DNA of 64,000 nt, taken from the NCBI GenBank assembly GCA_964001285.1, contig CAXFAF010000006.1, positions 8,205 to 72,204 on the forward strand, written 5' to 3'. The notes below the pieces were generated by a model. The model saw only the letters and a list, made by a program, of their open reading frames with translations. It ran no database searches and had not been told where the DNA came from. Within the stretch, counting starts at the first letter, position 1; each line of letters begins with the position of its first letter. A program made the translations under genes and the position numbers. Source of the stretch: an uncultured bacterium (lineage in GTDB: Bacteria > Pseudomonadota > Alphaproteobacteria > MED-G09). Positions 3,105 to 54,105 of the stretch are shown here, piece by piece.

Positions 3105-4112
<1,008 letters not shown>

Positions 4113-5292: not shown

Positions 5293-5301
5293 GTAAGGAT
5301 T

Positions 5302-6177
5302 ATGTCGGTTCTAATAGATAAAAATACTAAATTAATTTGCCAAGGTATAACTGGTGCCCAAGGTACTTTTCATACCCAGCAAGCAATTGAGTATGGCACT
5401 CTGGTTGTTGGTGGAGTAAAGCCTGGAGCTGGAGGAACAAGTCATCTAGATTTGCCTGTTTTCGATAATGTTAGTGATGCTATTAAAGAAACTGGCGCTA
5501 ATGCATCAGTTATATATGTACCTCCACCTTTTGCAGGTTCAGCAATTTTAGAGGCTGTTGAAGCCGAAATTGATCTAGTTGTATGTATTACTGAAGGTAT
5601 TCCAGTGGTAGATATGGTAAAAGTGAAGAAGGCCTTGTCTAAATCCGAATCTCGATTAATAGGGCCAAATTGTCCGGGTATTATTACTCCTGGTCAATGT
5701 AAAATTGGTATTATGCCGGGCCATATTCATAAGAAAGGTTCTGTAGGTATAGTTTCTCGTTCAGGGACTTTAACCTATGAAGCTGTTGGTCAAACTACAG
5801 CTTGTGGACTTGGTCAATCGACTTGCATTGGAATAGGTGGCGATCCAGTAAACGGAACAAACTTTATTGACTGTTTAGATTTGTTCCTTAAAGACGACAC
5901 CACTGAATCAATTATTATGATTGGTGAGATCGGCGGTACAGCGGAAGAAGAGGCTGCAGAATTTATTAAGAAATGTAAAATAAAAAAACCGATTGTTGGC
6001 TTTATTGCTGGTTTAACTGCTCCTCCAGGTAGAAGAATGGGTCATGCAGGTGCTATTATTTCTGGAGGAAAGGGTGGAGCTAATGATAAGATAGAAGCGT
6101 TGAAAGACGCAGGAGTTGTAATATCAAAATCTCCTGCAGGATTAGGGGAAACTTTATTAGAGGTTTTAGGAAGATAA
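5302..6177 (+). CDS. sucD: Succinyl-CoA ligase alpha subunit
   Basis: CoA-binding N-terminus ([14 protein letters not shown]), catalytic-His region ([10 protein letters not shown]) and an MGHAGAI motif. Confidence 0.95.
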
Positions 6178-7581
6178 ATGTCAGATAATTATGATGTTGC
6201 AGTAATAGGATCAGGCCCTGGCGGGTATGTATGTGCTATTCGTGCAGCACAATTGGGATTAAGTGTTGTTTGTATTGATAAGAGAGGAAGTCATGGTGGA
6301 ACTTGCCTAAATGTTGGATGCATTCCTTCAAAAGCATTACTGCATGCTTCAGAATTATTCATTGAAAAAAATAAGTTTTCATCGATGGGAATAGAAACAG
6401 ATAATGTTTCATTAAATTTAGAGACCATGATGAAATATAAAGATGATGGAGTTCAAGGAAATGTTAAAGGTATAGATTTCCTATTTAAAAAAAACAAAAT
6501 AGAAAATTTTTATGGTGAAGCAAAAATAATATCTCCAAATAAATTAGCTATAAAATCTAATGATGGGGAAGATAAAGAAATTGAATGTAAAAATATTGTT
6601 ATTGCTACAGGATCAGTTTCTTCATCTTTACCAGGTATTGAAATTAGTGGAGAAAAAATTATCTCTTCCACAGAAGCACTTTCCTTAAATGCTGTGCCGA
6701 ATAAACTAGTTGTTGTTGGCGGGGGGTATATTGGACTAGAACTTGGCTCTGTTTGGAGTCGACTAGGATCAGATGTTTCAGTGATAGAATATTTAGATAG
6801 AATAACTCCTGGGATGGATTCAGAAATTTCTGCAAATCTTGAAAAGATCTTAACTAAACAGGGTTTAAAGTTTTCTTTAAATTCTGAAGTAACCACAATT
6901 GATGAGAATAATTCAGGTGCAGTAGTTACTATTAAGAACAGAGAAAATAGTGATGAACAAAATATTGAAGCGGATATAGTCCTAGTTTCTACGGGACGTA
7001 AACCTTATATAGAAAATCTGTTTGGGGATGGTGTTAATTTAGACCTTACAGAGACAGGTTTTATTAAAACCGATACTCATTTAAGAACTAGTTTAGATGG
7101 AGTATGGGCTATAGGAGATGTTGTAGAAGGCCCAATGCTTGCTCATAAAGCTGAAGAAGAAGGAATAGCTGTGGCTGAGTTGATAGCTGGAAAACCAGGG
7201 CATGTAAATTACGACATTATTCCTAGTGTCATTTATACTAGCCCTGAAGTAGCTTCAGTTGGAATGACTGAAGAACAACTAAAAGAGAATTCAATTAAAT
7301 ATTCTGTTGGAAAGTTTCCTTTTCTAGCTAATGGTAGAGCAAAAGTTAATAATACTACTGAAGGATTTGTCAAAATATTATCGTCTTCTGAAACCGATCA
7401 AATACTGGGAGTGCACATTATTGGTGATCAGGCAGGAAATATGATTGGTGAAGCCTCTGTTGCTATGGAATTTGAGGCTACCTCAGAGGATTTAGCAAGA
7501 ATTTGTCATGCTCACCCAACTCTTTCTGAGGCTATAAAAGAAGCCGCTTTATCTGTTGATGGTAGAGCTCTTCATATGTAA
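6178..7581 (+). CDS. lpdA: Dihydrolipoyl dehydrogenase (E3)
   Basis: FAD motif GSGPGGY, redox-active disulfide GGTCLNVGCIPSK, NAD motif VVGGGYIGLELG and a C-terminal dimerisation HAHPTLSEA. Its ATG abuts the sucD stop. Confidence 0.95.
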   Translation: MSDNYDVAVIGSGPGGYVCAIRAAQLGLSVVCIDKRGSHGGTCLNVGCIPSKALLHASELFIEKNKFSSMGIETDNVSLNLETMMKYKDDGVQGNVKGIDFLFKKNKIENFYGEAKIISPNKLAIKSNDGEDKEIECKNIVIATGSVSSSLPGIEISGEKIISSTEALSLNAVPNKLVVVGGGYIGLELGSVWSRLGSDVSVIEYLDRITPGMDSEISANLEKILTKQGLKFSLNSEVTTIDENNSGAVVTIKNRENSDEQNIEADIVLVSTGRKPYIENLFGDGVNLDLTETGFIKTDTHLRTSLDGVWAIGDVVEGPMLAHKAEEEGIAVAELIAGKPGHVNYDIIPSVIYTSPEVASVGMTEEQLKENSIKYSVGKFPFLANGRAKVNNTTEGFVKILSSSETDQILGVHIIGDQAGNMIGEASVAMEFEATSEDLARICHAHPTLSEAIKEAALSVDGRALHM

Positions 7582-7584
7582 TTT

Positions 7585-8889
7585 CTAATTTAGTATTTTA
7601 TCGTATTCTCTTTTCAAGAAATCATCATCTAATTTTGTGTATATTTGCGTAGTATCTATAGAGCTATGGCCAAGTAGTTTCTGAATTTTTCTAATGTTAA
7701 TACCATTCTGAAGAAGGTGGGATGCAAAACTATGTCTTAGGGAGTGAGGTGTAGCCTCTGAAGGAAGAGGGCCAGGATAAATTTCAATAAGTTTTTTCAT
7801 GCTTCTTTGAATGTCTCTTGTAGTTAAACTATCTTTTTTATTTGAAGAGATTTTTAAAAAGAGAGGATCATTATTATTTATATCTATTGTTTCTAAAGAT
7901 TTAAGATTTGATATGTACAAATTTATTTTTTGTTTAACTATTGGAAGAATAGGAATATATCTTTCTTTATTCCCTTTTCCAATTATTTTAATTTGATCTT
8001 CAAAAGGAAGATCTGAGAATGTAAATTGCAAAACTTCTGAAACTCTTAATCCAGTAGAATAGATAAAATATAGAACTGCTATATCTCTGCGATGCTGCCA
8101 AGAAGACCATTCTCTTAAGTTTGTGTTCTTGACATCTGGATCTATATATTTAAGGAAATCAATTAACTCCTCCTCCTTAAAGGTTTTGTTTGAAATTCTT
8201 GATTCATATTTACTTGTTATAATCTTTGTGAATGAATGATTTTTCCACTTATTTTTTTCGCTAAGATATTTGAAATAATTTCTTAACACTGACTGACAAC
8301 GAGCAAGACTTCTATTGCTTTTCTCTTTTTCTTTATATTTATTAACACAACCATTTTTGCTTAAAATTTCAATCTTCTTAGAAATATCTCCAAAATTGTT
8401 ATAAATTTCTTTACCTGAAATAATTTCACCCTTAAAAAAATTATCAAGATTATTAATTAAATCTATATTTTCTCTTTTTTTGAAGAAGTCTTTGTGGCCA
8501 GTAAGTAAGTTTGATGGTTTAGTTGTTTCAAAATAATAATAACCGTTTAACATTTCATCTTTTAGATTTTCGAAATTATTTGTTCTTCCAAGATAAAAAC
8601 TTTGATAAGAAAGGAAATCAATATCCTTAAAATGCTTAAGACTATTTAATGAAGGAGATTTTGCTAAGTAAATTTTACAAAATTTTAGGAAATGTGAAAT
8701 TGTTCTTGCATATTCATTTATAGTAAGCTGACTTCTATCCTTTGAAATTAAACTTCTAATATAATCCTTTGAAATTTTTTCAAGGTCTTTTTTTGCATAT
8801 GTAAAATTTGATGTTTTTGGAAAATGAAGTTTTTTAACCGCTTCTTGCATACTATAAGATTTTTTGGCCACTGTTTTCCCAATCATCAA
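7585..8889 (-). CDS. Tyrosine recombinase, XerC/XerD-like, with an extended N-terminus and an internal insertion
   Basis: The C-terminal catalytic domain carries the full R..K..HxxR..H..Y set ([40 protein letters not shown]). The N-terminal core-binding-like segment reads [15 protein letters not shown]. At 434 aa it is far longer than a typical Xer (~300 aa). An alternative start at 8850 would remove the 38-nt overlap with tal. Confidence 0.8.
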
Positions 8890-9508
8890 GAAAAGCTTTT
8901 AAGCCTTTATCTGTTAATGGGTGAATTGCTAATTCAGATACTACTTGAGGTGGAAGAGTCGCTATATCTGCGCCATATAAAGCTGCTTTTTTAACATGAT
9001 CAATATTACGAATTGATGCGGCAAGTATCTCTGTTTTAAAATTAGGATAATTGTCATAGATAATTTTAATATCTCTAATTAAATCCATTCCATCTTCGCC
9101 AATATCATCTAGTCTTCCAATAAATGGCGAAATAAATGATGCACCTGCCTTTGCAGCAAGAACAGCCTGTTGGGATGAAAAACATAAAGTAACATTAACC
9201 ATAATATTCTTATCTGATAGTGCTTTGCAAGCTTCTAAGCCATCCCATGTTAAGGGTACTTTGATTGCAACATTACGCGCTAATTTACTTAAGACTAGAC
9301 CTTCTTCAATCATGCCATCTGCGTTTGTTGATGTTACTTCTGCGCTTACAGGACCATCCGTTAATGAACAAATTTCTTTTATTACCTCTTTAAAATCCCT
9401 TCCCGATTTTGCTATTATAGACGGATTTGTTGTTACCCCATCAACCATACCTGATTTTGAAAATTCTTTTATTGCATTTATGTCAGCACTATCTATAAAA
9501 AATTTCAT
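8852..9508 (-). CDS. tal: Transaldolase / fructose-6-phosphate aldolase family (short type 3B)
   Basis: 218 aa, with [15 protein letters not shown]...GVTTNPSI and a catalytic-lysine region matching short Tal/FSA enzymes. Confidence 0.88.
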
Positions 9509-9587
9509 TTCCTAACCTATATATTTTCTTTCCATATTTTCTTATTAATACAATATAATCTTATGAAATAATACTAATGATTTTAAA

Positions 9588-11555
9588 ATGAAAAAAGTTT
9601 CAGTACTTCTCCCAACAAACACAAATCAAACATATGATTACTTAGTGCCAAAAGAAAAAGAAATAGATATAGGGTCCTTTGTTTCAGTGTCTTTTAGAAA
9701 TAAACAAATGAACGGCATTGTTTGGTTTGACAGTGGAGACAAGGTTGATAAAGCAAAACTTAAAAATATTTTAGAAGTATATTCTGGCATTAAATTAAAG
9801 AAAAATTATATTAAATTCTTAGATTTTTATCAGAAATATAATCTTATCCCTCTTGGTAAAATATTACGATTAATTCTACCTAAAGATAAAATTTTAGAAT
9901 CAGTAGAAACTTCAAAAAAGGAAAAAGCCAAAAATAATTTATCAAGTAAAACAATTCTTTCTTTAACCAAAGCGCAAAAAGACGCATCAAAAAAATTAAT
10001 TAATTCTGTTTCTGAAGAAAGTTTTGAAAGATTCTTAATAGATGGTGTGACGGGTTCTGGGAAAACTGAGATTTATTTTGAGGCTATCAATCAAGTCCTT
10101 ATACAAGGCAATCAAAGTCTTATATTACTTCCCGAAATAGCTCTTGTGGATTCTTTAGAAGAAAGAATTTTAGAAAGATTTGGATTTGAACCTGCGGTTT
10201 GGCACTCAGAAACAAAGATTTCTAAAAAAAGGAAGATTTGGAGTGATGTGTATACTGGAAAAACGAAATTAGTTATTGGCGCCAGATCGTCCCTCTTTTT
10301 ACCTTTTAAAAATCTAAATTTAATAGTTATTGATGAAGAACATGATTCTACTTTTAAACAGCAAGAACAAGTTATTTATAATGCTAGGGATATGGCGATA
10401 GCGAGAGCTTCTCATGAAAAATCAACTATTGTTATGGTTTCAGCAACGCCTTCATTAGAATCTTTATTTAATGTACGAGAAAAGAAATATAATCATTTAA
10501 AATTACCTGACAGAATTGGTTCTGCAGGTTTACCAATTATAAATGTTGTTGATATGCGAAAGGAAAATATAGAAAAGGACTCATGGATTTCTGCAACATT
10601 AAAATCAGCAATTACTGAAACATTAAATAATAATGAGCAAGTCCTTTTGTTTTTAAATAGAAGAGGGTATGCACCATTAACAATTTGTAAGAGTTGTGGG
10701 CATAAAATTGAATGTAAAAAATGTGATGCCTATTTAGTCCATCATAAATCACGAAATAAAATTATATGTCATCAATGTGGATTTACCGATAAATTTATGA
10801 AGTCTTGCCCTTCATGTAATATTGAAGATTCTTTTTTACAATATGGTCCAGGGATAGAAAGGATAACGGAAGAGGTTGTAAAATTATTTCCCAAAAAAAG
10901 TGTTTCATCCATTTCTTCTGATAATGCTAAAAATGTTATTGATATTCTAGATTCATTAGAAAAAGGCAGTACAGATATTGTTATTGGAACCCAAATAATA
11001 TCAAAGGGGTATCATTTACCAAATTTAACTCTTGTTGGTGTTATTGATGCAGATTTAGGACTTGCTAGTAGTGACTTGAGGGCTTCTGAACATACTTTTC
11101 AATTATTGCAACAAGTTTCCGGGAGATCTGGAAGAGAAGAAAAACAAGGAAGAGCTTTGATACAAACTTATTATCCAGATCATCCGGTTATTAAATCATT
11201 AACAAATTCAAATAGAGAAGAATTCGTTAATGCTGAACTTTCTTCCAGAAAAAGATTAGAATTACCCCCATATGGAAGATTAGCAAATATTACACTTTCC
11301 GATACAAAAGAAGAAAGGCTCATTAATTTTTGTAAGAAACTTTCAACACTTATTCCTAAATCAAAAAGATTAATTGTTTTTGGTCCTGCGCCTGCGCCGA
11401 TAACAAAAATTAGAAACAGATATCGTTACAAATTTCTTTTAAAGACCGATAAAAATGTGAACATACAAGAATTTATTAAACAATGGTTATCAAAAGCAAA
11501 AAAACCAAACACCACTCGTATTTTGATAGATGTTGATCCATATAATTTTTTATAA
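9588..11555 (+). CDS. priA: Primosomal protein N' (replication restart helicase PriA)
   Basis: Walker A GVTGSGKTEIY, a DEEHD box, a Cys-rich zinc-binding module (CKSCGH...CKKCD...CHQCG...CPSC) and C-terminal helicase motifs. Confidence 0.93.
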   Translation: MKKVSVLLPTNTNQTYDYLVPKEKEIDIGSFVSVSFRNKQMNGIVWFDSGDKVDKAKLKNILEVYSGIKLKKNYIKFLDFYQKYNLIPLGKILRLILPKDKILESVETSKKEKAKNNLSSKTILSLTKAQKDASKKLINSVSEESFERFLIDGVTGSGKTEIYFEAINQVLIQGNQSLILLPEIALVDSLEERILERFGFEPAVWHSETKISKKRKIWSDVYTGKTKLVIGARSSLFLPFKNLNLIVIDEEHDSTFKQQEQVIYNARDMAIARASHEKSTIVMVSATPSLESLFNVREKKYNHLKLPDRIGSAGLPIINVVDMRKENIEKDSWISATLKSAITETLNNNEQVLLFLNRRGYAPLTICKSCGHKIECKKCDAYLVHHKSRNKIICHQCGFTDKFMKSCPSCNIEDSFLQYGPGIERITEEVVKLFPKKSVSSISSDNAKNVIDILDSLEKGSTDIVIGTQIISKGYHLPNLTLVGVIDADLGLASSDLRASEHTFQLLQQVSGRSGREEKQGRALIQTYYPDHPVIKSLTNSNREEFVNAELSSRKRLELPPYGRLANITLSDTKEERLINFCKKLSTLIPKSKRLIVFGPAPAPITKIRNRYRYKFLLKTDKNVNIQEFIKQWLSKAKKPNTTRILIDVDPYNFL

Positions 11556-41077: not shown

Positions 41078-42712
41078 ATGCAAAAACAATACGATGTTAT
41101 AATACTTGGCGCAGGTGCAAGCGGTATGGCTGCCGCTTTGGCAGTTCATGAAAATGGTTCATCGGTAGGGCTTTTTGAGAAACAGAATCTTGTTGGAGGT
41201 ACAACAGGAGTTTCTGGAGGAATTATTTGGGCCCCTATGAATAGTTATATGAAAGAAAAGGGTATAGCCGATGATAGACAAAAGGCTATAGACTACTTCA
41301 TGTCTTTATCTAACAATGATATAGACCCAAATCTACTTGAATCTTTTATAGATAACTGTTCAACAGCAATAGATTTTATAGAAGAAAAAACCGACGCAAG
41401 TTTTTATATATTAGATGGTTATCCTGATTATTATCTTGATAGACCTGGTGCTTTAGAAGGCGGAGGAAGAGCCTTAGATAATAATCTATTTGATTTTAGT
41501 AAACTTGGAAATTGGGCTGAGAAAGTTAGAGGTAACGGAAAACCAATTCCTATGACTCTTGGGGAAACACCTCTAGGTGGAGGAACAGGTATAGTAGAGG
41601 ATTCTATCATGGGAGAAAGAATTTCAAATGACTCACGAGGAATGGGTCAAGCATTAGTTGGGGCTCTTCTCAAAGGTTGTCTCGACAGAGGCATTGAACC
41701 CCAGCTTGGGATAAATACAAAAAAATTAATTAAAGAAGGAAATAGAATCATTGGTATTGAGATTGATAATAATGGTGAGGCTTTTGAAATCTACGCAAAT
41801 AGAGGTGTCATTATTGCTACTGGAGGCTTCGAATGGAACGAGAATTTAGTAAATAATTTCTTAAGAGGTCCCCTAAATGCTCCTGCGTCACCTCCAGGTA
41901 ATGATGGTGATGGATTAAAATTAACTCAAGAAGTAGGCGCTTCTTTAGGCAATATGACAAGCGCCTGGTGGTCGCCTGTTCTATCAATACCAGGTGATCA
42001 ATGGCCAGAAGGGGGACAAAGGTCAGCTCCAATTTTAATTGAAAGAACTTTACCTCATACAATTATGGTGAATCGATCAGGTAATAGATTTTGTAATGAA
42101 GCAACTAATTATTCTGCAATGGCCGGTGCTTTTCATTTTTTTGACCCCAATGAATATGGGTATCCAAATTTACCAGCATGGTTGATTTTTGATTCAAATT
42201 ATAGAGAAAAATATCCTTTTTCTAATATTATGCCAGGATCTAATGATCCCGAATGGTTTATTAGTTCTGAAAATATAAAGGAATTATCTGAGAAACTTGA
42301 AATAGATTCCAAATCTTTGAAAAATACAATCAAAGTTTTTAACAGTTATGTTGATAACGGTGAAGATCTTGAGTTTGGAAGAGGTAAAAGTGATTACGAT
42401 TCTTTTTATGGAGATAGAACCCAATCAGGTGTCTACACGACCTTAGGAAAAATAGATAAACCGCCCTTTTATGCGGTTAAATTAGATATTGGGGCTTTGG
42501 GAACTAATGGTGGAGCAAGAACTGATAAATTTGGTCGAGTAATTTCTGCCTCAGGAGAAATTATTGACGGTTTGTACACTGTGGGGAATGCTATGGCAGG
42601 TAGTACGGGTTCGGTTTATGCGGGAGCAGGTGGCACCTTGGGTCCAGCATTGACTTATGGTTATCTTGCTGGTTGTCATGCTGCAGGAAATAATTTTGCT
42701 GAAAAGGAGTAA
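41078..42712 (+). CDS. FAD-dependent oxidoreductase, 3-ketosteroid-delta1-dehydrogenase (KstD)-like / fumarate-reductase flavoprotein family
   Basis: N-terminal FAD motif DVIILGAGASGMAAAL, and C-terminal ...GLYTVGNAMAGSTGSVYAGAGGTLGPALTYGYLAG typical of KstD-like enzymes. 544 aa. Confidence 0.82.
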   Translation: MQKQYDVIILGAGASGMAAALAVHENGSSVGLFEKQNLVGGTTGVSGGIIWAPMNSYMKEKGIADDRQKAIDYFMSLSNNDIDPNLLESFIDNCSTAIDFIEEKTDASFYILDGYPDYYLDRPGALEGGGRALDNNLFDFSKLGNWAEKVRGNGKPIPMTLGETPLGGGTGIVEDSIMGERISNDSRGMGQALVGALLKGCLDRGIEPQLGINTKKLIKEGNRIIGIEIDNNGEAFEIYANRGVIIATGGFEWNENLVNNFLRGPLNAPASPPGNDGDGLKLTQEVGASLGNMTSAWWSPVLSIPGDQWPEGGQRSAPILIERTLPHTIMVNRSGNRFCNEATNYSAMAGAFHFFDPNEYGYPNLPAWLIFDSNYREKYPFSNIMPGSNDPEWFISSENIKELSEKLEIDSKSLKNTIKVFNSYVDNGEDLEFGRGKSDYDSFYGDRTQSGVYTTLGKIDKPPFYAVKLDIGALGTNGGARTDKFGRVISASGEIIDGLYTVGNAMAGSTGSVYAGAGGTLGPALTYGYLAGCHAAGNNFAEKE

Positions 42713-42714
42713 TT

Positions 42715-43623
42715 ATGGAAAAAGTTTTGGTTTATGGTGCAAGTGGCGATCAAGGAGTTCCTCTTGTTAATGCGTTAATTAAAAAGGGCTATAAAATTAG
42801 AGCTGCATCAAGATATCCAGAAAAATACAAAAGTGAAATTCAGGGAGATGTAGAGAGTGTAAAGGCTGATCTATTTGATGTTAATACACTTAAAGAAGCT
42901 TGTAGAGATGTTGATTGTATAGCTATGAATTTACCTTTTGTTTTTGATAGAGCGATTGCGAAACAATGGGGAGAAAATATAAATAATGCTGGAAAAGAAA
43001 TGGGTGTTAAGAAAATAGTTTTTAATACAAGTTGTTATGTTGCCCCTAATGATAATGGATTAGAAGCCCATGATGGAAGAAGAGAAATAGAGAAATCTAT
43101 GGAAGAAAGTGGTATGGATTTTGCTGTAATTAGATCGGTGGTTTTTATGGATAATCTATCAAGATTTTGGGCGAAACCTTCGATAGTTAATAGTAATATT
43201 TTTGCTTATCCTTGCAGCGAAACCCTTAAAATTTCTTGGATTTGTCTTGAAGATGTCGCAGCCTTTATGGTCGCAGCCTTATCAAAGAAAGATGTTAAAG
43301 CTGATAAAATTACTGTTGGCGGACCTGAAATATTATTGGGTTCTGAAGTTGCTGAGAAATTTACGAAAGCACTTGGTAGAGAAATAAATTTTCAGAGTTT
43401 AGAACCAAATAGTTTTGCAAGACAAATGAGCAAGTTAGTCACTGGGTCTGAAGAATATGAAAAACCATCCATCTATGGTGGGATGGCAGCTTTTTATAGA
43501 TGGTATAATGAACAAGACCCTTCACCCTTAGCAATTGAAATGGATGAGTTGTATGATAAATTTTCTATAACTCCAACTTATTTTGAGGACTGGATTAAAA
43601 AGCATGATTGGGATAATATCTAA
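42715..43623 (+). CDS. NmrA-like NAD(P)-binding protein (atypical SDR)
   Basis: N-terminal Rossmann VLVYGASGDQGVPLVNALIKKGYKIRAASR. 302 aa, with a 3-nt gap to the upstream gene. Confidence 0.78.
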   Translation: MEKVLVYGASGDQGVPLVNALIKKGYKIRAASRYPEKYKSEIQGDVESVKADLFDVNTLKEACRDVDCIAMNLPFVFDRAIAKQWGENINNAGKEMGVKKIVFNTSCYVAPNDNGLEAHDGRREIEKSMEESGMDFAVIRSVVFMDNLSRFWAKPSIVNSNIFAYPCSETLKISWICLEDVAAFMVAALSKKDVKADKITVGGPEILLGSEVAEKFTKALGREINFQSLEPNSFARQMSKLVTGSEEYEKPSIYGGMAAFYRWYNEQDPSPLAIEMDELYDKFSITPTYFEDWIKKHDWDNI

Positions 43624-43646
43624 TAAGAGGTTTTTAAAATTATGTA

Positions 43647-44891
43647 ATGTCTGACAGTAATATTGAAAAATACAGTTTTTTAGATCCGCTTATTAATAGC
43701 GACCCTTTTGAGTTTTACGAAATGCTTCATAAAGAGCAACCTGTATATAAAATTCCTGAGGTCGGAATTTATATGCTTACAAAATATGATGATATTAGGA
43801 TGGCTCTTAAAGATTTTGAAACATTTTCAAACGATGTCAGTGTAGCGACCCGAGGTGAATTTTCATCGTTACATCAAAATATTCTTACTGATGGTGGAGG
43901 CTGGGAGCATGTTCAGACTCTTCAAAGAACTGATCCTCCTGTTCATAGAAGGTATAGAAAACTTGTCGATAGGGTATTTACTAAGAAAAGAGTAGATGAA
44001 TTATTACCTCATCTCGACGAAGTTGTTAACGAGCTAATTGATAATTTTATTGAAAGTGGAACTTGTGACTTCAATGATGAGTTTGCTATGCGTATGCCTG
44101 GTATCATAATAGCCGAGCAACTTGGTTTATCGAGAGACAATGTTGCTACTTTTAAAAAATGGGCTGACTCAATGTTAGGTGCAAGTAGGGCGCCCATCGC
44201 GACTGAAGAGGAAGTAACTGCAAATGCAAAGATTGAGCTTGAAGCCCAACTTTTTTTGGCTGATGTATTTGAAGATAGAAGAAAAAATCCAAAAGAAGAT
44301 TTGATGTCGGCAATGGTTCACGCTCACGGTGATGATGAAGAGCCTTTATCTATGCATGAACTTCAAAATTTAATGCATCAATTAATTACTGGTGGATATG
44401 AAACAACTCAAAGCGCTATTAATCACGGAATGTGGGCTCTTATAAGATTTCCAGATATTGTAGAAAAACTCTATGAGGATGACTCACTTCTAAAACCTTT
44501 TATTGAGGAGGTTTTAAGATGGGAAAGTCCAGTTCAATTCCTTTTAAGAAGGACGCAAAAAGATGTAGAAGTATCAGGGACAACAATACCTAAGGACTCA
44601 ATGGTCATGATGGGATATGGACCGGCTAATAGAGACGAAAGCAAATTTTCATGCCCTCATCAGTTTCAATTAGATAGAGAAGGTGTTGGTGCGCATGTAG
44701 CTTTTGGTTCAGGCGCGCATCATTGTCCAGGTGCTCTATTAGGCAGACAAGAAATGATTCGTTCTTTCAAATTTCTTATAAAAAGAATGAAAAATATAAA
44801 ACTAGCTAAACCCCTTCAAGAGCCTGTTCACAATTTCAGTTTGTTTTTTATGCCTATGAAGGAATTTTTTATAACTTTTGATAAGCGTTAA
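43647..44891 (+). CDS. Cytochrome P450
   Basis: Heme-thiolate loop FGSGAHHCPGALLG, I-helix ITGGYETT, an ExxR motif and PERF-like regions. 414 aa. Confidence 0.92.
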   Translation: MSDSNIEKYSFLDPLINSDPFEFYEMLHKEQPVYKIPEVGIYMLTKYDDIRMALKDFETFSNDVSVATRGEFSSLHQNILTDGGGWEHVQTLQRTDPPVHRRYRKLVDRVFTKKRVDELLPHLDEVVNELIDNFIESGTCDFNDEFAMRMPGIIIAEQLGLSRDNVATFKKWADSMLGASRAPIATEEEVTANAKIELEAQLFLADVFEDRRKNPKEDLMSAMVHAHGDDEEPLSMHELQNLMHQLITGGYETTQSAINHGMWALIRFPDIVEKLYEDDSLLKPFIEEVLRWESPVQFLLRRTQKDVEVSGTTIPKDSMVMMGYGPANRDESKFSCPHQFQLDREGVGAHVAFGSGAHHCPGALLGRQEMIRSFKFLIKRMKNIKLAKPLQEPVHNFSLFFMPMKEFFITFDKR

Positions 44892-44900
44892 CTAATTTTC

Positions 44901-45434
44901 CTATCTTTGGTATGCGGGATCTTGACGACTTCTACTTGCAGAAGGTCCCGGTGCTTCTAGTTGGCCTTTTTCATTAGCAGGTTCAAATCTGATCCAATCA
45001 TGAACACCCTGTCGTTTAGCTATTTTCCATTCACCATTTCTTCTTTCGAAGCGATCAATATATCTTCCACTAACGAAAACATCCTCATCAATGCTTGTGT
45101 CATGCTCAGCTAAAAAACCCATATCAGATTCTTTACCTTTGGCGATTCTATGATATGCGGTCCAATAAGCTTCAGACCATGCAATATCACCATCTACTTC
45201 AATAAGAAGATTTCCAACAAGATGTTGGGTAAATTCCATTTCAGCTAATATGTCGAAGGCAAAGTTACAGAAATCTGATGATGGACCCTCATATTCTCCA
45301 TGATGATGAATTGAGTCTTCATGGAATACGGATTCTAAAAGTTCCCGATCCATTCTGTCTATTGCTCTGCAGTATCTATATACCACATCTGCTATTTCAA
45401 TCTTATCTGCAGCTATTTCCAATTTTTTATTCAT
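44901..45434 (-). CDS. SnoaL_4 / NTF2-like domain protein (paralog B); positioned like an oxygenase beta subunit
   Basis: 177 aa, with IADVVYRYCRAIDRMDRELLESVFHEDS. Begins 16 nt downstream of Rieske alpha paralog 4 on the same strand. Confidence 0.75.
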   Translation of the reverse strand: MNKKLEIAADKIEIADVVYRYCRAIDRMDRELLESVFHEDSIHHHGEYEGPSSDFCNFAFDILAEMEFTQHLVGNLLIEVDGDIAWSEAYWTAYHRIAKGKESDMGFLAEHDTSIDEDVFVSGRYIDRFERRNGEWKIAKRQGVHDWIRFEPANEKGQLEAPGPSASRSRQDPAYQR

Positions 45435-45450
45435 TATATACCTTCAAAAC

Positions 45451-46797
45451 TTATTCATTTTCTTCGTTAAAAAGGTATCGATCAATATTTTCATGAAAAA
45501 ATCTTATTCTATTTTCTTGAGCCGGCATATAATCGCCTATGTAACCTCTTGAGCTCAAACCTTTTTGTTGACTGGTCCATATTGCAACATCTTCAGAAAT
45601 TCCATCTCCTACATCTACTTCAGAGTGATGCCCCTTTAGATGAGGAATTTTTGTATTTATAGCTGTTTTCTTTTTCAGCATATGTGAATAATATTCATCA
45701 ACTCCTTTTGGAAATAAAGTTAGATACCAATAGTCAAAATAACATTTTGTTGGATCAGTAGGGTGGGGTGTTCCTCTAAGCCATTGCATTCCATCTGGTT
45801 TTACACTGAATGACATATTTGGAAAAATTGTATAATGGTGATGATCTGTTAATTGGGTATCTGTAAACTTACTAAAGTCATAACCTTTTTCTTTATCAAG
45901 TTTCCTTTTTTGCTTTTGCAAATCGTTTCTTATTTCAAGAAGCCTACCTTTATAATCATTTGCATCCATATCCCAATACTCAATTGCCGGAGAAATAGCC
46001 TCTAAAACTTTTTTTTCATCATCATAAACACTTTTACTAGGAATAAATCCAGGCATAAGCATTCTTGCATGCATACTTTCATACATATCGAATTGACAAG
46101 AGTAATATTTTTCATCTGAGAAATATTTTAAGGCAGGATGAACATAAGGAGTATGATATGATTCATTGAAATTATCCTGTACACATTTCCAGTTCCAATC
46201 ACCTTCAACAGTAACCCAATGTGTTCTTATCATTTCCGATATGGGATAGTTTTCTAGTTGATCCATTACTGGATGTAAATATTCTTTTAAAGTTTTTGCG
46301 TTAGGGTCTAGATTAAAAAAAATAAATCCTTCCCAAATCTCTGATTTAATTTCAATTAAATTTCTTTTACCGCAAGGAGAGCCTTGAGGAAAATCCTCTT
46401 CATCAGGAACCCATTCAAGGTTTCCGTCCAGGCCAAATTTCCAGGCGTGATAAGCGCATGAAAAACTATCTAAGTTGCCTTCATCAACCTGAACTAATTT
46501 ATTTCCTCTATGTTGGCATACATTATAGAAGCATCTAATTTTAGAATCTTCACCTTTTGCACATAAAATTGACTCACGACCAAAATCATATGTAAAGAAG
46601 TCACCAGGATTTTCGAGTTGCTGTTCTAAACCAGCAACTTGCCAAACTTTTGTAAAAAGTTTTTCCCACTCTAAATCCATAAATTCTTTCGATGTATACC
46701 TTTCTCCGAGAATAGGTTTATTGCCTAACTTTGGTTCAGGTGCTTTGACTGTATCACCACCAAAGAAAGAATCAGATTTTGATAAAATTTTATCCAT
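45451..46797 (-). CDS. Rieske non-heme-iron oxygenase alpha subunit (paralog 4)
   Basis: Rieske CQHRGNKL...CAYHAW (variant second box) and Fe site DNFNESYHTPYVH. 448 aa. Confidence 0.86.
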   Translation of the reverse strand: MDKILSKSDSFFGGDTVKAPEPKLGNKPILGERYTSKEFMDLEWEKLFTKVWQVAGLEQQLENPGDFFTYDFGRESILCAKGEDSKIRCFYNVCQHRGNKLVQVDEGNLDSFSCAYHAWKFGLDGNLEWVPDEEDFPQGSPCGKRNLIEIKSEIWEGFIFFNLDPNAKTLKEYLHPVMDQLENYPISEMIRTHWVTVEGDWNWKCVQDNFNESYHTPYVHPALKYFSDEKYYSCQFDMYESMHARMLMPGFIPSKSVYDDEKKVLEAISPAIEYWDMDANDYKGRLLEIRNDLQKQKRKLDKEKGYDFSKFTDTQLTDHHHYTIFPNMSFSVKPDGMQWLRGTPHPTDPTKCYFDYWYLTLFPKGVDEYYSHMLKKKTAINTKIPHLKGHHSEVDVGDGISEDVAIWTSQQKGLSSRGYIGDYMPAQENRIRFFHENIDRYLFNEENE

Positions 46798-46867: not shown

Positions 46868-47764
46868 TTATTTTGTGTTGGTTAGAGCAATAGGGTTTTC
46901 AGACATTGAATTTAAATATGCTATAAGATTGGCTCTATCCTTATCTTTTCTAAGTCCAACAAATGCCATAGAGTTACCCGGCGCAAATTTCTTTGGACTT
47001 TTTAACCATAAATTCATTTCGTCTATTGACCAATTACCCCCTAAAGTTTTAAGGGCCTCTGAATATTTAAATCCTGAAATTTCAGCCTTACTTTTTCCCA
47101 AAATACTCCATAGATTAGGCCCTATTCTATTGCTTCCGCCTGCATTGAAACCATGGCAAGCCGAACATTTTGAGGAAACTTTTTTTCCTGCATCAATTGA
47201 TGCAATTGCAAGTAATTCTTCAAATGATAATTTGGGCTTTTCTTTTACGGGTTGTTTTACTTCCGTTTCAATATTAGCTTCAGCTATTTCAGTAATTCCT
47301 TGAGCGCCATATGAAGATCTTATCGTCTTTAAAAGATTAAGTTTCTTTTCGATGATTATCACTTTTTTATCAATATTATCTCTATTCAATATCCTATGAG
47401 ATTTCCCAGTTAGTAAAAAATTTAAATCATTTTCTACTGCAATAATCTTATTATCTAATTCATTGACACTAACAACGCTTTTAAAATGTTTTACAAATCT
47501 TTCCTGTTTTTTTATTTTTTTCTTAAGCTCTTCTCTTCTAAGAACAGTGTGATTAAGGTTTTTTTGATTATTTGGTTGAGATTCTATTGAAAAATAACTT
47601 TCATCAATAAAATCTACATTCGCCAGTAATTCTTCTGAAGATGGAGGGTCAATTGATTCAACAAAGAACAATTTATTTCCCGTTCTTATAATTCCAGAAA
47701 CGATTAATAATGTGAAAAGTACAGCAAAGAATCCTTTTATTATTGTATTTGCATTTAAATTCAT
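46868..47764 (-). CDS. cycM: Membrane-anchored class I cytochrome c (CycM-like)
   Basis: N-terminal TM helix, about 150 aa of charged linker, then a mitochondrial-type cytochrome c domain with heme site CSACH and GPNLWSILG...YS.AL...W..DEM..WL..PKKF.PG.SMAF.GL...DR.NLIAYL (Met ligand). Confidence 0.88.
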   Translation of the reverse strand: MNLNANTIIKGFFAVLFTLLIVSGIIRTGNKLFFVESIDPPSSEELLANVDFIDESYFSIESQPNNQKNLNHTVLRREELKKKIKKQERFVKHFKSVVSVNELDNKIIAVENDLNFLLTGKSHRILNRDNIDKKVIIIEKKLNLLKTIRSSYGAQGITEIAEANIETEVKQPVKEKPKLSFEELLAIASIDAGKKVSSKCSACHGFNAGGSNRIGPNLWSILGKSKAEISGFKYSEALKTLGGNWSIDEMNLWLKSPKKFAPGNSMAFVGLRKDKDRANLIAYLNSMSENPIALTNTK

Positions 47765-49560: not shown

Positions 49561-50766
49561 ATGGATAGTGGAAATACTGCCTGGATTTTGACATCAACTG
49601 CATTGGTATTGTTTATGACATTACCGGGTCTTGCTTTATTTTATGGTGGTTTAGTGCGTTCAAAAAATGTTTTATCTGTTTTAATGCAATGTATTTCGAT
49701 AGCTTGCTTAGCATCAGTTTTATGGCTTGCGGTTGGTTACAGTTTAGCATTTGGAGATGGTAATCAGTGGATAGGTGATACTTCTAAGGTATTTCTTTCA
49801 GGTGTAGGAAGGGATGTTTTATCTGGCGATATTCCAGAAACAGTATTCTTTGCTTTTCAAATGACATTTGCAGTAATAACGCCTGCACTTATTGTTGGCG
49901 CTTATGTAGAAAGAATTAAGTTTTCCGCAGTTCTACTCTTCAGCGCCCTTTGGTTACTTATTGTTTATGCGCCAGTCACACATTGGATATGGTCTGGAAA
50001 TGGTTGGTTATTCCAAGCAGGGCTTTTAGATTTTGCAGGAGGACTTGTTGTTCACTTAACTGCAGGATCTTCTGCTTTAGTATTAGCAGCGATGTTAGGT
50101 CCTCGTTCTAATTTTCCATTACAAGTAGATCCGCCGCATAATCCTGCAATGGTTATGATTGGGGCATCTATGTTATGGGTTGGATGGTTTGGATTTAATG
50201 CAGGCAGCGCATTAGCTGCTGATGGAAATGCCGGCATGGCAATGGTGGTTACACATATTTCTGCTGCAACTGCGTCTTTAGTTTGGATGCTAATGGATTG
50301 GTCAAAATTTGGAAAACCAACATTGATAGGGCTTGTAACAGGAACAATTGCTGGACTAGCTTCTATAACACCAGCTTCAGGATCAGTAGGGCCAATTGGA
50401 GCCTTAATTATTGGAGCGTCAGCAGGCTTTATATGCTATCTCTTTGTTAATATTGTAAAAAATACTCTAAAAATTGATGATTCCCTTGATGTTTTTGCAG
50501 TTCATGGTGTAGGTGGTGTGTTAGGTATAATCTTGGTGGCGTTTTTAGTTGATTCTAATATTGGTGGCGCCGGATATGCCGAAGGTATGAATGCTGCGTC
50601 TCAATTAGCTATTCAAGTCAAAGGAGCGTTAGCTGTTCTTGCACTTTCCGTAGTAGCTACAGTTATTATAACTTATATTGTTAAATTTACTGTTGGTCTT
50701 AGAGTTGATGAAACTTCTGAAATTGAAGGACTTGATATTTCATCTCACGGAGAAACAAACGGATAG
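49561..50766 (+). CDS. amtB: Ammonium transporter (Amt family)
   Basis: Amt signature regions (DFAGGLVVHL..., twin-His region) and 11 TM segments. Start moved to the ATG at 49561 (GGAGGG 7 nt upstream) in place of the TTG at 49546. No adjacent glnK. Confidence 0.9.
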   Translation: MDSGNTAWILTSTALVLFMTLPGLALFYGGLVRSKNVLSVLMQCISIACLASVLWLAVGYSLAFGDGNQWIGDTSKVFLSGVGRDVLSGDIPETVFFAFQMTFAVITPALIVGAYVERIKFSAVLLFSALWLLIVYAPVTHWIWSGNGWLFQAGLLDFAGGLVVHLTAGSSALVLAAMLGPRSNFPLQVDPPHNPAMVMIGASMLWVGWFGFNAGSALAADGNAGMAMVVTHISAATASLVWMLMDWSKFGKPTLIGLVTGTIAGLASITPASGSVGPIGALIIGASAGFICYLFVNIVKNTLKIDDSLDVFAVHGVGGVLGIILVAFLVDSNIGGAGYAEGMNAASQLAIQVKGALAVLALSVVATVIITYIVKFTVGLRVDETSEIEGLDISSHGETNG

Positions 50767-50774
50767 AGAAGCTT

Positions 50775-51800
50775 TTATTCTAATTGATTAATCCAGTCTC
50801 TTATAATTGGAATTGCCTCATCGTGTCTAAGGCTTCTACTTAGCTCGGGCATCATAACTCCGGGGTCAGTTGATAACATCCTATATAAAAGTATTGATTC
50901 ATCAGCATTACCTGGATCAATAATATATTTGAGTCCCCCGCTACCTCTTCCAGCTGCAACAGGTGTTTTGAATATGCCAAGTGTCACTGAATCTTTTTCT
51001 AACAAATCAAGATAAAAACCTGAGTTACTTGCTGAACCACCTCTTCTATGACAATGGGCGCAGTTTGCATCTAAATAAGATCTAGCCCTATTACCAATAA
51101 TGTGATCGTTGTTATCCCATATTGCTGGGTTAGGTTTAATTTTTTTAGGTACATCAGAAAGGTATCCTTGATTTTTCCAGTAATTAATTTGGTTTTCTTC
51201 TCCAGAAGAATAGATGAAATTTATATTCATATTACGACCCTTGGGTCCAATTGGCATTATATTTTTATTGATTTCATGACAGGTTTTACATTGATTAACA
51301 TTTGGCGCTCTGTATCTTACTTTCCTTTCCTCTCCTTTTTTGTTAATCCAGCTCAAATTAAATGTTTGTCCTGTATATTTTAAATATGCATCAGTTTGAT
51401 CTTTATTCCATATATAACTTAGTGGAATCCATCCATTTTCATTTTTAATCAAAAGTCTGGTTTCTAATAAATAAAAACCATCTTCTAAACTTCTTTCATC
51501 AACAGGGTATGCAAATGTTTTGATTATTGTTGCCCCAGCGGGGAAATAAAATATATCTTGATAAGAATATTTTGCTGGTTGTTCATCAGGAAAGTGAACA
51601 AAACGAAACTTATAGGAATAATCGGAAAATAATGGGTTAGATATTTTATATGGGATTGTATTATTTGAAGGTATTTGATTCTTTATATCAGTAAAAAAAT
51701 TATATTCTGAGAGGTATTTATAAGGTTCGGCTGATAAATAAGAAAAACCGCATAAAGTAATAATAAGAAATAAGAAAAGGTTTTTTAGTTTTCTGGCCAT
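50775..51800 (-). CDS. Secreted di-heme c-type cytochrome, conserved protein of unknown function
   Basis: Signal peptide MARKLKNLFLFLIITLCGFSYLSA. Two CxxCH sites (CKTCH near aa 171, CAHCH near aa 247). Its start overlaps the upstream beta-helix gene by 16 nt. Confidence 0.75.
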   Translation of the reverse strand: MARKLKNLFLFLIITLCGFSYLSAEPYKYLSEYNFFTDIKNQIPSNNTIPYKISNPLFSDYSYKFRFVHFPDEQPAKYSYQDIFYFPAGATIIKTFAYPVDERSLEDGFYLLETRLLIKNENGWIPLSYIWNKDQTDAYLKYTGQTFNLSWINKKGEERKVRYRAPNVNQCKTCHEINKNIMPIGPKGRNMNINFIYSSGEENQINYWKNQGYLSDVPKKIKPNPAIWDNNDHIIGNRARSYLDANCAHCHRRGGSASNSGFYLDLLEKDSVTLGIFKTPVAAGRGSGGLKYIIDPGNADESILLYRMLSTDPGVMMPELSRSLRHDEAIPIIRDWINQLE

Positions 51801-53026
51801 GAAGTTATGAATTTGACTTTAGTTAAAGAAATTTCTTCACCAATATAATCATTATAGTTTTTCTTGGTTTTATGAAGCCAGGGCAATATTGCATAGGTCA
51901 TTAAATTTAGGTTAATCATATCTGTTGAACCATCTTTTGTTTTGTTTGGCCCTAATACAAGTCTTTTTTGCTTCTTTAAGCCTAGCCACTCAAAGATATT
52001 TGTTACCCCGTCCCAGATAATTTCAGGAGCTTTACCTTCAGTTAATAATGCTATTGGTTCAGCTCTCTCATTGTCGACATCGAATCCATTATTATTTAAA
52101 GAGTTATCTTTTATGAAAATTTTATTTGGAAGTGGATTGTAGTTATCATCTTCATATTCCTCTAGGTAACTGACAACTAATATGCCTGCTGTTGCGTTTC
52201 CTGAAATGATATTTTCTTCAATTTTAACATTTTCATTTGCCATAATCATTATTCCTGTTCCATTGGGTGTTTTACCAACAATGTTGCCTTCTGGAGCAAA
52301 ATTTGGAGTATCATTATTTATAACTTTATTGTTCTTTACTAAAATATCATGCCCTCCTTGCTGAGGTAGATTTGGCAAATCAAAGACGAGTATACCACCA
52401 GTATTATGATGTGCAGTATTGCCAATTACTTCAGCAAAGTAACTATTTTCGATTTCAATTCCTGCAACATTAAATTTTGCTTCGCTGTTAATTACTTTTA
52501 TTCTTTCAGATTGGCCAACATAAATACCTGCATCAGATGCGCCAATAGCAATACAACTATCTATTAGGACATCTTTACTTTCTACAGGGTATAAACCATA
52601 TGCCCCATTGGTTGATTTGGGGCCTCCTGTCCATTCTGCTCTTACTCTTAAAAACCTTATGCCTTCGGCCTTTTTAACTACAATGGCATCCCCAATTGTA
52701 TCCTCAACAGCAAAATCTCTAAGTGTAACACCACTGCTAGTAACCAATAATCCCTCAGCGCCTGATTTTTGATTTTTAAAAGATAAAATGGTTTTATTAA
52801 TTCCATCGCCCGACAAAGTTACATTATCAACATCAAGTGAAAGTCCATCTTCAAGATCATAAACTCCTTCATTAAGATGTATTTCATCAAATGGTTTAGC
52901 CAAGATTAAAGCTTCTTGTATCTGATCATAAGCAGAAGGTCCTGGGCTAATAAATATTTTTGCTTTTACTGTTTCACCGTAAAAAAACACTAGAAATGTA
53001 AAGGCTATAATTTTTCTTAATTTCAT
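51785..53026 (-). CDS. Secreted right-handed parallel beta-helix repeat protein (NosD/CASH-like fold), unknown function
   Basis: Signal peptide MKLRKIIAFTFLVFFYGETVKA and repeated G/N-rich turns (NNGFDVDN, GNTAHHNTGGILV, NNKVINN) typical of PbH1 repeats. 4-nt overlap with nudC upstream. Confidence 0.7.
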   Translation of the reverse strand: MKLRKIIAFTFLVFFYGETVKAKIFISPGPSAYDQIQEALILAKPFDEIHLNEGVYDLEDGLSLDVDNVTLSGDGINKTILSFKNQKSGAEGLLVTSSGVTLRDFAVEDTIGDAIVVKKAEGIRFLRVRAEWTGGPKSTNGAYGLYPVESKDVLIDSCIAIGASDAGIYVGQSERIKVINSEAKFNVAGIEIENSYFAEVIGNTAHHNTGGILVFDLPNLPQQGGHDILVKNNKVINNDTPNFAPEGNIVGKTPNGTGIMIMANENVKIEENIISGNATAGILVVSYLEEYEDDNYNPLPNKIFIKDNSLNNNGFDVDNERAEPIALLTEGKAPEIIWDGVTNIFEWLGLKKQKRLVLGPNKTKDGSTDMINLNLMTYAILPWLHKTKKNYNDYIGEEISLTKVKFITSWPEN

Positions 53027-53979
53027 TTTTTGTTCTCTACAAAAGCTTTAATTAAATGATGAGCAATAGCCATTGGTGGCGGAACAAAGAAACCGTTTTT
53101 ATTATTACCGTTAATTGTCTCTTTAAGTTCATCTTTTGTAAACCAACGACCTTCATCAATCTCAACTTCATCTAATTTAAAATTTTCCGATGTTGATTCA
53201 GCAATATAGCCTATCATAAGTGAATTTGGAAATGCCCAAGGCTGACTTGAGTGATATTCCGCTTTTACTATTTCTATTCCGGCCTCTTCCTTTAATTCTC
53301 TTGCAACTGCTTCTTCAATAGATTCGCCAGGTTCTATAAATCCTGCTAAAGCCGAATACATGCCAGGTGGAAATCTTTTTTGCCTACCTAGGAAAGCAGT
53401 ATCCTTATATGTTGCTAGCATAATAACGACAGGATCTGTTCTTGGGAAATGTTCTGAATTACATTTATGGCAAATTCTTTTATAACCGGCTTCAACCATA
53501 ACACTTTCTTCTCCACATCTTGAACAAAATTGATGACTGTTATTCCATTCAAAAATGGCTTTCGCCTGGCCAATCATAGCTAGTTCGCCAGGATCAATAG
53601 ATTGAGGTGCGAGTACCATCAAATCTTCAAAATTTCCAAGTTCATTTAATCCCAAAACATCTTCTGGATTAGATAGTCTAGATAAATCTACAGCGAAGAA
53701 CGACATATCTCCTATCAGGCCTAAAAAAATTAAATTGTCTTGATCAGTTAATTGATTTTTAAAGAAATCTAAAGGAAACCAAGCAGGACTTAATTGATCG
53801 GCATCCGCATGTCCTGAAATGAGATTTCTTACTGTTGATACAAAAGCTTTCCCCCGCCAAAAAAGAGCTATCATCGTTTTGTCACTTTTTAACGTTTTTT
53901 TAACCCATTCTGGATCTGATCGTAAATCAGAAACTCTATCAACTGGATTGTTGGAGAATATATTAGGATAAACTTTCAT
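53023..53979 (-). CDS. nudC: NADH pyrophosphatase NudC (NUDIX with zinc ribbon)
   Basis: Zinc ribbon CSRCGEES...CHKCN and Nudix box GFIEPGESIEEAVARELKEEAGI. 318 aa. Confidence 0.85.
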   Translation of the reverse strand: MKVYPNIFSNNPVDRVSDLRSDPEWVKKTLKSDKTMIALFWRGKAFVSTVRNLISGHADADQLSPAWFPLDFFKNQLTDQDNLIFLGLIGDMSFFAVDLSRLSNPEDVLGLNELGNFEDLMVLAPQSIDPGELAMIGQAKAIFEWNNSHQFCSRCGEESVMVEAGYKRICHKCNSEHFPRTDPVVIMLATYKDTAFLGRQKRFPPGMYSALAGFIEPGESIEEAVARELKEEAGIEIVKAEYHSSQPWAFPNSLMIGYIAESTSENFKLDEVEIDEGRWFTKDELKETINGNNKNGFFVPPPMAIAHHLIKAFVENKK

Positions 53980-54105
53980 AACTTAATAAATTATATAATA
54001 TGGTACTAATAAATATTAGTCTAATAAACAGTTTCAGTGAATTTACTTTAGCTGTTGATTAAAGACTCATTATATATTTAATATTTGATTTCTTAAGAGG
54101 AAATT

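Follow-up and report, generated by a model that had tools for sequence, protein, structure and literature searches.

What could tie a gene for a cytoplasmic enzyme of nicotinamide adenine dinucleotide (NAD(H)) turnover to two genes whose products are exported, one of them a cytochrome with two haems? The question is raised by three genes packed on the minus strand of a 64,000-nucleotide stretch of DNA from an uncultured alphaproteobacterium of the MED-G09 lineage (GenBank assembly GCA_964001285.1, contig CAXFAF010000006.1, positions 8,205 to 72,204). This whole stretch is referred to as the window, and positions are counted from its first letter. An earlier note, made from the sequence of the window, had seen no obvious rationale for coupling an NAD(H) pyrophosphatase to a periplasmic redox pair. 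The genes are the following:

53023-53979, minus strand: nudC, 318 amino acids (aa), the first gene of the apparent transcription unit
51785-53026, minus strand: secreted right-handed parallel beta-helix protein, TIGR03805, 413 aa, with its core at residues 36-341 (nt 52004-52921)
50775-51800, minus strand: secreted di-haem c-type cytochrome, TIGR03806 (HNE_0200 / SO2930), 341 aa

The gene overlaps of 4 and 16 nt given in the earlier note were both recovered when the junctions were read in the sequence. The stop codon of nudC and the start codon of the beta-helix gene share ATGA (53023-53026), and the cytochrome gene starts (ATG at 51800) 16 nt before the beta-helix stop codon ends (overlap 51785-51800). 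The interpretation preferred here, with a probability of about 0.55, is that the beta-helix protein and the cytochrome make up a two-subunit periplasmic module in which an AlgE-like beta-helix is combined with a P460-like/PSCyt1 di-haem cytochrome, nudC being incidental to it. That a Nudix gene of cytoplasmic function precedes a periplasmic redox pair would then be ordinary gene packing.

The assignment of the second and third genes to the TIGR03805/TIGR03806 pair is close to certain. The beta-helix protein scores 374.4 bits against TIGR03805 (cut-off 141.5), matches the repeat model TIGR03804 and contains generic Pfam Beta_helix/NosD repeats. The cytochrome scores 369.8 bits against TIGR03806 (chp_HNE_0200, 'SO2930 family diheme c-type cytochrome'; cut-off 313.3), residues 28-340 covering profile positions 3-314 of 314, and gives faint cytochrome c signals only with Pfam. 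Both hidden Markov model scores exceed the curated cut-offs; the obligate 'HNE_0200-type' pair that the earlier note had named is thus real, and the locus belongs to it. As in other TIGR03805/TIGR03806 pairs, the window genes are adjacent, co-directional and overlapping, both products are secreted and the cytochrome carries two CxxCH motifs. The single difference from typical members is the upstream nudC, which is clade-specific. The locus adds one more member to a family pair that is already known but uncharacterised. The pair had been described as of unknown function, and the literature bears this out: no functional study of TIGR03805/TIGR03806, HNE_0200 or SO2930/SO2931 was found, SO2931 appearing as a 'cytochrome c lipoprotein' entry in a transcriptome table and nothing more.

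The earlier note had placed the pair in the Alphaproteobacteria, which proved too narrow. A genome scan yielded 80 loci, which rank best among at least 600 pattern matches and are hence biased towards typical members. They comprise 30 loci from Bacteroidota, about 30 from Alphaproteobacteria (Caulobacterales, Kordiimonadales, Sphingomonadales, Hyphomonas, Parvibaculum and Rhizobiales), 12 from Gammaproteobacteria (SAR86, SAR92 and others), four from Planctomycetota, two from Marinimicrobia and one from Binatia, while three are labelled only 'Proteobacteria', 'Pseudomonadota' or 'metagenome'. At least six phyla are spanned. Carriers that can be cultivated include Phenylobacterium kunshanense, Kordiimonas lacus, Sphingomonas cavernae, Aquirufa and Gimesia maris. 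Relatives of the cytochrome number 5986 at E<=1e-3 among cluster representatives at 50% identity, and 634 at 1e-30; its metagenome matches run into the thousands.

Throughout this range the two genes stay together. In 75 of the 78 genome loci where the arrangement could be tested, the gene immediately preceding that of the cytochrome, on the same strand, is the beta-helix gene; two of these 75 are fusions, and the exceptions are L039, L058 and L081. In L058, a metagenome-assembled genome (MAG) of Saprospiraceae, the cytochrome gene is preceded by an open reading frame of 3253 aa (57-9818) that has no match to the window beta-helix at E<=1e-5. Among the 150 best family representatives, 20 carry the beta-helix and the cytochrome in one polypeptide, always with the beta-helix N-terminal. 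The Gimesia maris protein P0476 is also a natural fusion. Other architectures were also encountered: tandem beta-helix/beta-helix, beta-helix/beta-helix/cytochrome, and extra C-terminal class I cytochrome c domains. Tandem duplications of TIGR03805, with or without a C-terminal TIGR03806, were seen in P0448, P0405 and P0440 (about 870-900 aa) and in P0393 (1318 aa), mostly from Binatia and deltaproteobacteria-like MAGs. The pair is therefore a self-contained two-protein module, adjacent or fused across many bacterial phyla.

The di-haem module is also joined to a catalytic partner other than the beta-helix. In P0376, a metagenomic representative of 940 aa, a pyrroloquinoline quinone (PQQ)-dependent glucose/sorbosone dehydrogenase (GSDH) domain is followed by PSCyt1, a class I cytochrome c domain and a full TIGR03806. 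That TIGR03806 is fused here to a PQQ dehydrogenase by way of a cytochrome c shows that the domain works in electron-transfer chains.

The natural fusions allowed the two halves to be modelled together. An AlphaFold2 model of the fusion P0244, built on an alignment of fused, beta-helix-only and cytochrome-only rows, reached a predicted local distance difference test score (pLDDT) of 91.5 and a predicted template-modelling score (pTM) of 0.90. These values argue for one compact unit with a fixed arrangement of the halves. The unfused beta-helix and cytochrome, too, very probably form a physical complex.

Export of both proteins is consistent with their N-termini, where the earlier note had also placed signal peptides. 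By inspection, these are typical of the Sec type, a positive n-region being followed by a hydrophobic core and an AxA-like site, and no lipobox was seen in either. The cytochrome homologues have N-termini of the same character. The two signal peptides, read from the sequence, are:

52961-53026, minus strand: beta-helix signal peptide, residues 1-22, MKLRKIIAFTFLVFFYGETVKA, with a VKA cleavage motif and predicted cleavage between MKLRKIIAFTFLVFFYGETVKA and K
51729-51800, minus strand: cytochrome signal peptide, residues 1-24, MARKLKNLFLFLIITLCGFSYLSA, with predicted cleavage between MARKLKNLFLFLIITLCGFSYLSA and E

The nudC product, in contrast, has no signal peptide. It scores above the cut-off of the NAD(+) diphosphatase model NF001299 (208.6 bits; cut-off 158) and contains the Pfam domains NUDIX-like, Zn_ribbon_NUD and NUDIX. 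A complete Nudix box (GFIEPGESIEEAVARELKEEAGI), a Cys4 zinc ribbon (C152, C155, C170, C173) and the motif SQPWAFPNS can be read in it. To judge by these features it is an ordinary cytoplasmic NAD(+)/NADH diphosphatase, a Nudix enzyme that decaps NAD-capped RNA, standing outside the periplasmic module.

The census of gene neighbourhoods that the earlier note had proposed shows the pair recurring across phyla and nudC beside it in one clade only. Adjacent nudC was found in just five independent contigs, namely the window, L006 (a MAG labelled Rhodobiaceae; cytochrome 72% identical to that of the window), L090 (72%), L091 (66-69%) and L092 (60%). Where these contigs are long enough they share one gene order, with dnaX, recR and def upstream and amtB, pheA and kdsB downstream; L091 ends before dnaX could be identified and L090 ends just past the cytochrome gene. 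None of the other 74 pair-bearing genome loci has nudC next to the pair, the nearest copy being found in L077, at a distance of 8 kb. In L059, the MED-G09 contig that is the next relative (61%), the pair is likewise close to the amtB-pheA-kdsB block; nudC is missing there, and a cytochrome P450 gene stands in its position. Since all nudC-bearing contigs that reach upstream have dnaX, and recR and def where reached, the linkage is best explained as the inherited gene order of one marine alphaproteobacterial clade with a compact genome. We consider this very likely, and nudC is then not a functional partner of the pair. Loci identical to that of the window are present in several marine metagenome assemblies, Tara Oceans among them.

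A functional coupling of nudC to the pair, either through NAD-cap control of the operon mRNA or through a link between periplasmic redox and NAD(H) turnover, would fit the ATGA start/stop overlap in the window and the conservation of the nudC-beta-helix-cytochrome order in five independent contigs with cytochrome identity down to 60%. It is nonetheless very improbable, in view of the 74 of 74 other loci without adjacent nudC, the upstream genes shared by inheritance, the P450 gene that stands in its position in the MED-G09 relative and the different compartments of the proteins. That the linkage might be unique to this genome, which the earlier note would have counted against its idea, is not the case; the five contigs nevertheless are not a recurrence in independent lineages, which is what would speak for a functional link. 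The puzzle posed by the NAD(H) pyrophosphatase dissolves accordingly, the gene being adjacent in one clade only and the tight neighbours elsewhere being unrelated genes.

In L059, the pair lies directly behind genes for a flavin adenine dinucleotide (FAD)-dependent oxidoreductase, an NmrA-like protein and the P450, all on the same strand, which indicates that a rearrangement separates this cluster from the pair in the window. The corresponding window region (41078-46797) encodes on the plus strand a FAD_binding_2 oxidoreductase (544 aa), an NmrA-like protein (302 aa) and a cytochrome P450 (414 aa), followed on the minus strand by a SnoaL_4 protein (177 aa) and a Rieske ring-hydroxylating oxygenase (448 aa). 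The idea that the pair works with the P450, NmrA, FAD-oxidoreductase and Rieske genes was discarded, this association not being seen outside the lineage.

No other gene takes the place of a third partner. When all neighbours within about 7 kb were clustered for about 80 loci, no third gene recurred across taxa; the clusters were those of the pair, of lineage-restricted neighbours and, in GC-rich genomes, of an antisense artefact. Twenty tight co-directional neighbours examined with Pfam are of diverse kinds: aldo-keto reductase, AurF-like protein, EgtD, DUF819, amine oxidase, ABC1 kinase, DAHP synthase, PEMT, HlyD, DapB, OYE, amidase, SDR, DEAD helicase and PNP. TonB-dependent receptors (five loci) and GFA-domain genes (several relatives) recur weakly and were not taken as partners.

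The cytochrome is organised as follows:

51276-51719, minus strand: P460/c'-beta-like beta-sheet domain, residues 28-175, ending in the haem-1 motif
51276-51290, minus strand: haem-1 motif CKTCH, residues 171-175
50781-51080, minus strand: PSCyt1-like c-type domain, residues 241-340, defined by weak PF07635 matches
51048-51062, minus strand: haem-2 motif CAHCH, residues 247-251
50850-50852, minus strand: probable haem-2 axial ligand Met317, in an MMPE motif, 99% conserved and the sole conserved Met

The CxxCH sites thus fall where the earlier note had put them, at about residues 171 and 247, and the non-standard haem spacing it remarked on is real, a beta-sheet domain of about 140 residues standing ahead of haem 1. 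An AlphaFold2 model of the window cytochrome, built on an alignment of 29 sequences and good for the N-terminal domain only, is confident for residues 30-165 (pLDDT about 90), an all-beta region that ends at the first CxxCH. A Foldseek search with this model returned no significant match, P460/c'-beta proteins standing at ranks 2, 3, 9, 17, 27, 30 and 33. Cytochromes P460 and c'-beta are beta-sheet cytochromes with a CxxCH near the C-terminus and a five-coordinate, high-spin haem, which in P460 proper is also cross-linked to a Lys. The likeness to them (PF16694; structures 2je3, 6hiu, 7s5o, 8brk) lies in the predicted beta-sheet domain followed directly by CxxCH, in the lack of a conserved sixth haem ligand and in these top, non-significant structural matches. 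At the sequence level the window cytochrome scores 12.1 bits against PF16694 Cytochrome_P460, below the gathering score of 27, and weak colinear matches to this family were obtained in 24 of 61 diverse relatives (best E 5.4e-5).

The second haem domain bears some likeness to PSCyt1, the 'Planctomycete cytochrome C' domain (PF07635). The window protein reaches 16 bits, the gathering score being 22, and 54 of the 61 relatives give weak matches, one of them at 22.4 bits, over profile positions 1-56 of 59. These matches run from the second CxxCH to a conserved MP motif, and the weak resemblance resides in the segment from CxxCH-2 to G..PG...S.L..R.....MP and in the His/Met logic of ligation. PSCyt1 is typically partnered with PSCyt2 (DUF1549) and DUF1553-type (PSD1) domains. 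The second haem domain differs from it in scores mostly below the gathering threshold, in its C-terminal position after another haem domain and in having neither a PSCyt2 (DUF1549) nor a DUF1553-type (PSD1) partner. Sequence searches of the cytochrome and of the beta-helix against all PDB chains gave nothing meaningful. A profile of the cytochrome matched only motifs common to class I cytochromes c, in the surroundings of the two CxxCH sites.

The ligands of the two haems were examined in 225 aligned relatives. C171, C174, H175, C247, C250, H251 and M317 are at least 99% conserved, and all other His and Met residues fall below 95% (H249 92%, with Ser as the alternative; H326 80%). Tyr129 is conserved at 99%, and Lys64, Lys94 and Lys278 at 94-95%. 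This conservation suggests that haem 2 is ligated by His251 and Met317, and that haem 1 has His175 as its only conserved axial ligand and no canonical sixth ligand. Haem 1 would thus be open or unusually ligated, and reactive.

Such a pattern, with one His/Met haem and one haem lacking a conserved distal ligand, is also that of CcpA, and the hosts listed look largely aerobic from their organism labels. A di-haem peroxidase logic can be derived from it, in which the His/Met haem would admit electrons and the open haem would be the peroxidatic centre that removes periplasmic H2O2. The chance of this is slim. PF03150 (CCP_MauG) is matched by 5 of the 61 relatives, with a best E of 0.1, and by the window protein not even at E<=10; no PDB sequence match was found, and a peroxidase has no need for a beta-helix partner. 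Like di-haem cytochrome c peroxidases and MauG, the pair has two c-type haems, of which one is probably His/Met-ligated and the other probably open, but there is no relation in sequence or fold, the domains come in another order, the haems are differently spaced, and the beta-helix is an obligatory partner.

A similarly small probability is assigned to a periplasmic detoxifier of nitrogen oxides (hydroxylamine, nitric oxide), P460/c'-beta-like, whose haem 2 would remove or supply electrons. The similarity to P460/c'-beta from which it would start is weak, the role of the beta-helix is left unexplained, and the neighbour surveys recovered no nitrogen-cycle genes recurring nearby.

The beta-helix protein has a right-handed fold whose closest relative is the A-module of AlgE-type mannuronan C5-epimerases (AlgE4, 2pyg; epimerase/lyase 8ja4), with 26% identity to AlgE4 compared with 14% to NosD. 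Its profile search returned a pectinesterase N-terminus and phage phi29 gp12 only. The segment that invites comparison with the epimerase active site is:

52580-52600, minus strand: YGLYPVE, residues 143-149, family-invariant, aligned with the catalytic YGFDPHE of AlgE4

The catalytic residues of AlgE are Tyr149, Asp152, His154 and Asp178 (PMC7385640). When an alignment of 36 diverse beta-helix family sequences was compared by hhalign with the AlgE4 sequence (identical to 2pyg), a weak match of 38% probability paired Y143 with Tyr149, which is kept, Y146 with Asp152 and V148 with His154, Asp178 having no confident counterpart. Y143, Y146, P147 and V148 are invariant in these 36 sequences. The protein has the fold of an AlgE-like polysaccharide enzyme and is predicted to lack the catalytic Asp and His of the epimerases. 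It further differs from AlgE in lacking the Ca-binding R-modules and in having a cytochrome as partner. An invariant row of polar residues is nevertheless present (D113, N140, Y143, Y146, D165, Y169, Q172, E191, E193, N194, N208 and more), and no conserved Cys, His or Met was found in the family alignment.

The fold raises the alternative that the beta-helix is itself the enzyme, an AlgE-related epimerase, lyase or hydrolase of periplasmic polyuronate or acidic polysaccharide, the cytochrome being only an anchor, sensor or electron sink. This is improbable, if less so than the peroxidase and nitrogen-oxide alternatives. The AlgE residues Asp152 and His154 align with the invariant Tyr146 and Val148. 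The near-obligate pairing or fusion with a di-haem protein is not explained by a non-redox reaction, and no polysaccharide-utilisation neighbours recur, either in the neighbour clustering or in the Pfam analysis of the 20 tight neighbours. The pair is moreover retained in streamlined planktonic genomes (SAR86, this alphaproteobacterium), and such genomes have few polysaccharide-degradation genes.

Another protein to compare is NosD of the NosDFY(L) system for nitrous-oxide-reductase maturation, which is likewise a periplasmic right-handed beta-helix with PbH1 repeats and protein-protein docking. By analogy, the beta-helix could be a platform on which a periplasmic metalloenzyme docks to receive copper or sulfur, and the cytochrome would be its client or helper. 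Such a role is highly improbable: the protein fails TIGR04247 (31.6 bits against a cut-off of 300, over profile positions 1-169 of 377 only), is further in identity from NosD than from AlgE4 and has no conserved metal ligands among His, Met or Cys. Nor is there a third recurrent family in the roughly 80 loci, the window flanks being nudC and amtB and nos genes not having been searched for by models of their own. The profile tests therefore agree with the earlier note in separating the pair from CcpA/MauG peroxidases as well as from NosD.

For the preferred two-subunit module, a redox-enzyme mechanism can be outlined, to which somewhat less than an even chance is given. The beta-helix would act as a substrate-binding or co-catalytic platform, the substrate being held at the interface between the beta-helix and haem 1. 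Chemistry would take place at haem 1, the reactive centre, and haem 2 would relay electrons to or from a soluble or membrane-anchored cytochrome c pool and the respiratory chain. The direction could be that of an oxidase-type dehydrogenase or that of a cytochrome-c-dependent reductase/peroxidase. That the pair represents an unrecognised class of periplasmic haem enzyme, built from a P460-type open haem, a His/Met haem wire and a repurposed AlgE-derived beta-helix, is a bolder and on balance unlikely proposal. If true, it would provide a new haem enzyme class for an environmentally relevant reaction without an assigned gene in the carriers, among them this alphaproteobacterial clade, SAR86 and SAR92, which are abundant heterotrophs of the surface ocean, and many bacteria of soil and freshwater. 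Candidate reactions would be the turnover of hydroxylamine, nitric oxide or peroxide, or the oxidation of an acidic sugar.

Several observations weigh against the two-subunit redox module with an incidental nudC. The modelled fusion P0244 is a homologue that is 39-42% identical to the window proteins. In the cytochrome profile search the haem-1 region also faintly resembles class I cytochrome c motifs, and given this likeness haem 1 might do no more than carry electrons, with a ligation other than His/Met, for instance by Lys or Tyr. The need of the beta-helix for a redox partner is unexplained, as neither a conserved Cys, His or Met nor a cofactor site can be recognised in it. The nudC, beta-helix and cytochrome genes are contiguous, overlapping or nearly abutting, down to 60% cytochrome identity, and a clade-specific regulatory link of nudC to the pair might still exist. 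Finally, the literature yielded biochemical or genetic data for no member of the family.

The pair is a large 'known unknown', with about 6000 clusters at 50% identity and thousands of marine metagenome matches including Tara Oceans, and it is present in very compact genomes, where the genes kept are expected to matter. The problem is now narrower: the module is autonomous, with no nudC to be explained, and very probably one physical complex; one of its haems looks reactive, beyond electron carriage, and its beta-helix appears to be a catalytically rewired relative of uronate epimerases. New here are the predicted two-part construction of the cytochrome (P460/c'-beta-like and PSCyt1-like), the putative AlgE-like beta-helix without the catalytic Asp and His, and the compact model of the fusion.

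The flanks of the locus are the core genes amtB and dnaX, as had been noted. The amtB and cytochrome genes converge, their stop codons separated by 8 bp (window 50766-50775), and dnaX is divergent, upstream of nudC. No terminator-like hairpin was found within the three genes or in the surrounding region, including the convergent amtB/cytochrome junction. The best sigma-70-like promoter match lies upstream of nudC:

54069-54096, minus strand: TTAAGA-16-TATAAT, a consensus match only (10/12), candidate promoter for the nudC, beta-helix and cytochrome genes

Promoter-like sites in the region are not more numerous than in shuffled sequences. With no internal hairpin and a promoter-like match upstream of nudC, but no enrichment of such matches over shuffles, a single transcript across the three genes is plausible and no more. 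In this clade, nudC is probably co-transcribed with the pair without a functional connection to it.

Some lineage-restricted neighbours deserve mention. A GFA-domain gene (glutathione-dependent formaldehyde-activating enzyme family) directly follows the cytochrome gene in several alphaproteobacterial relatives (L059, 11022-11429; L088, 2321-2722; L089, 1526-1942; L092, 6031-6450) and lies within 4 kb of the pair in three SAR86 loci; it is missing after the window cytochrome gene. In four gammaproteobacterial loci, two of them labelled SAR86, a gene of the AurF-like di-iron oxygenase family overlaps the start of the beta-helix gene (L030, 7674-8795; also L019, L036 and L042), a lineage-specific association analogous to that of nudC in the clade of the window. 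At 46868-47764, 3 kb from the pair, the window encodes a protein of 298 aa that has a membrane anchor at its N-terminus and a class I cytochrome c domain at its C-terminus; this protein is syntenic with the pair neighbourhood in L006, L059, L086, L087 and L091 and is a possible electron partner of the pair.

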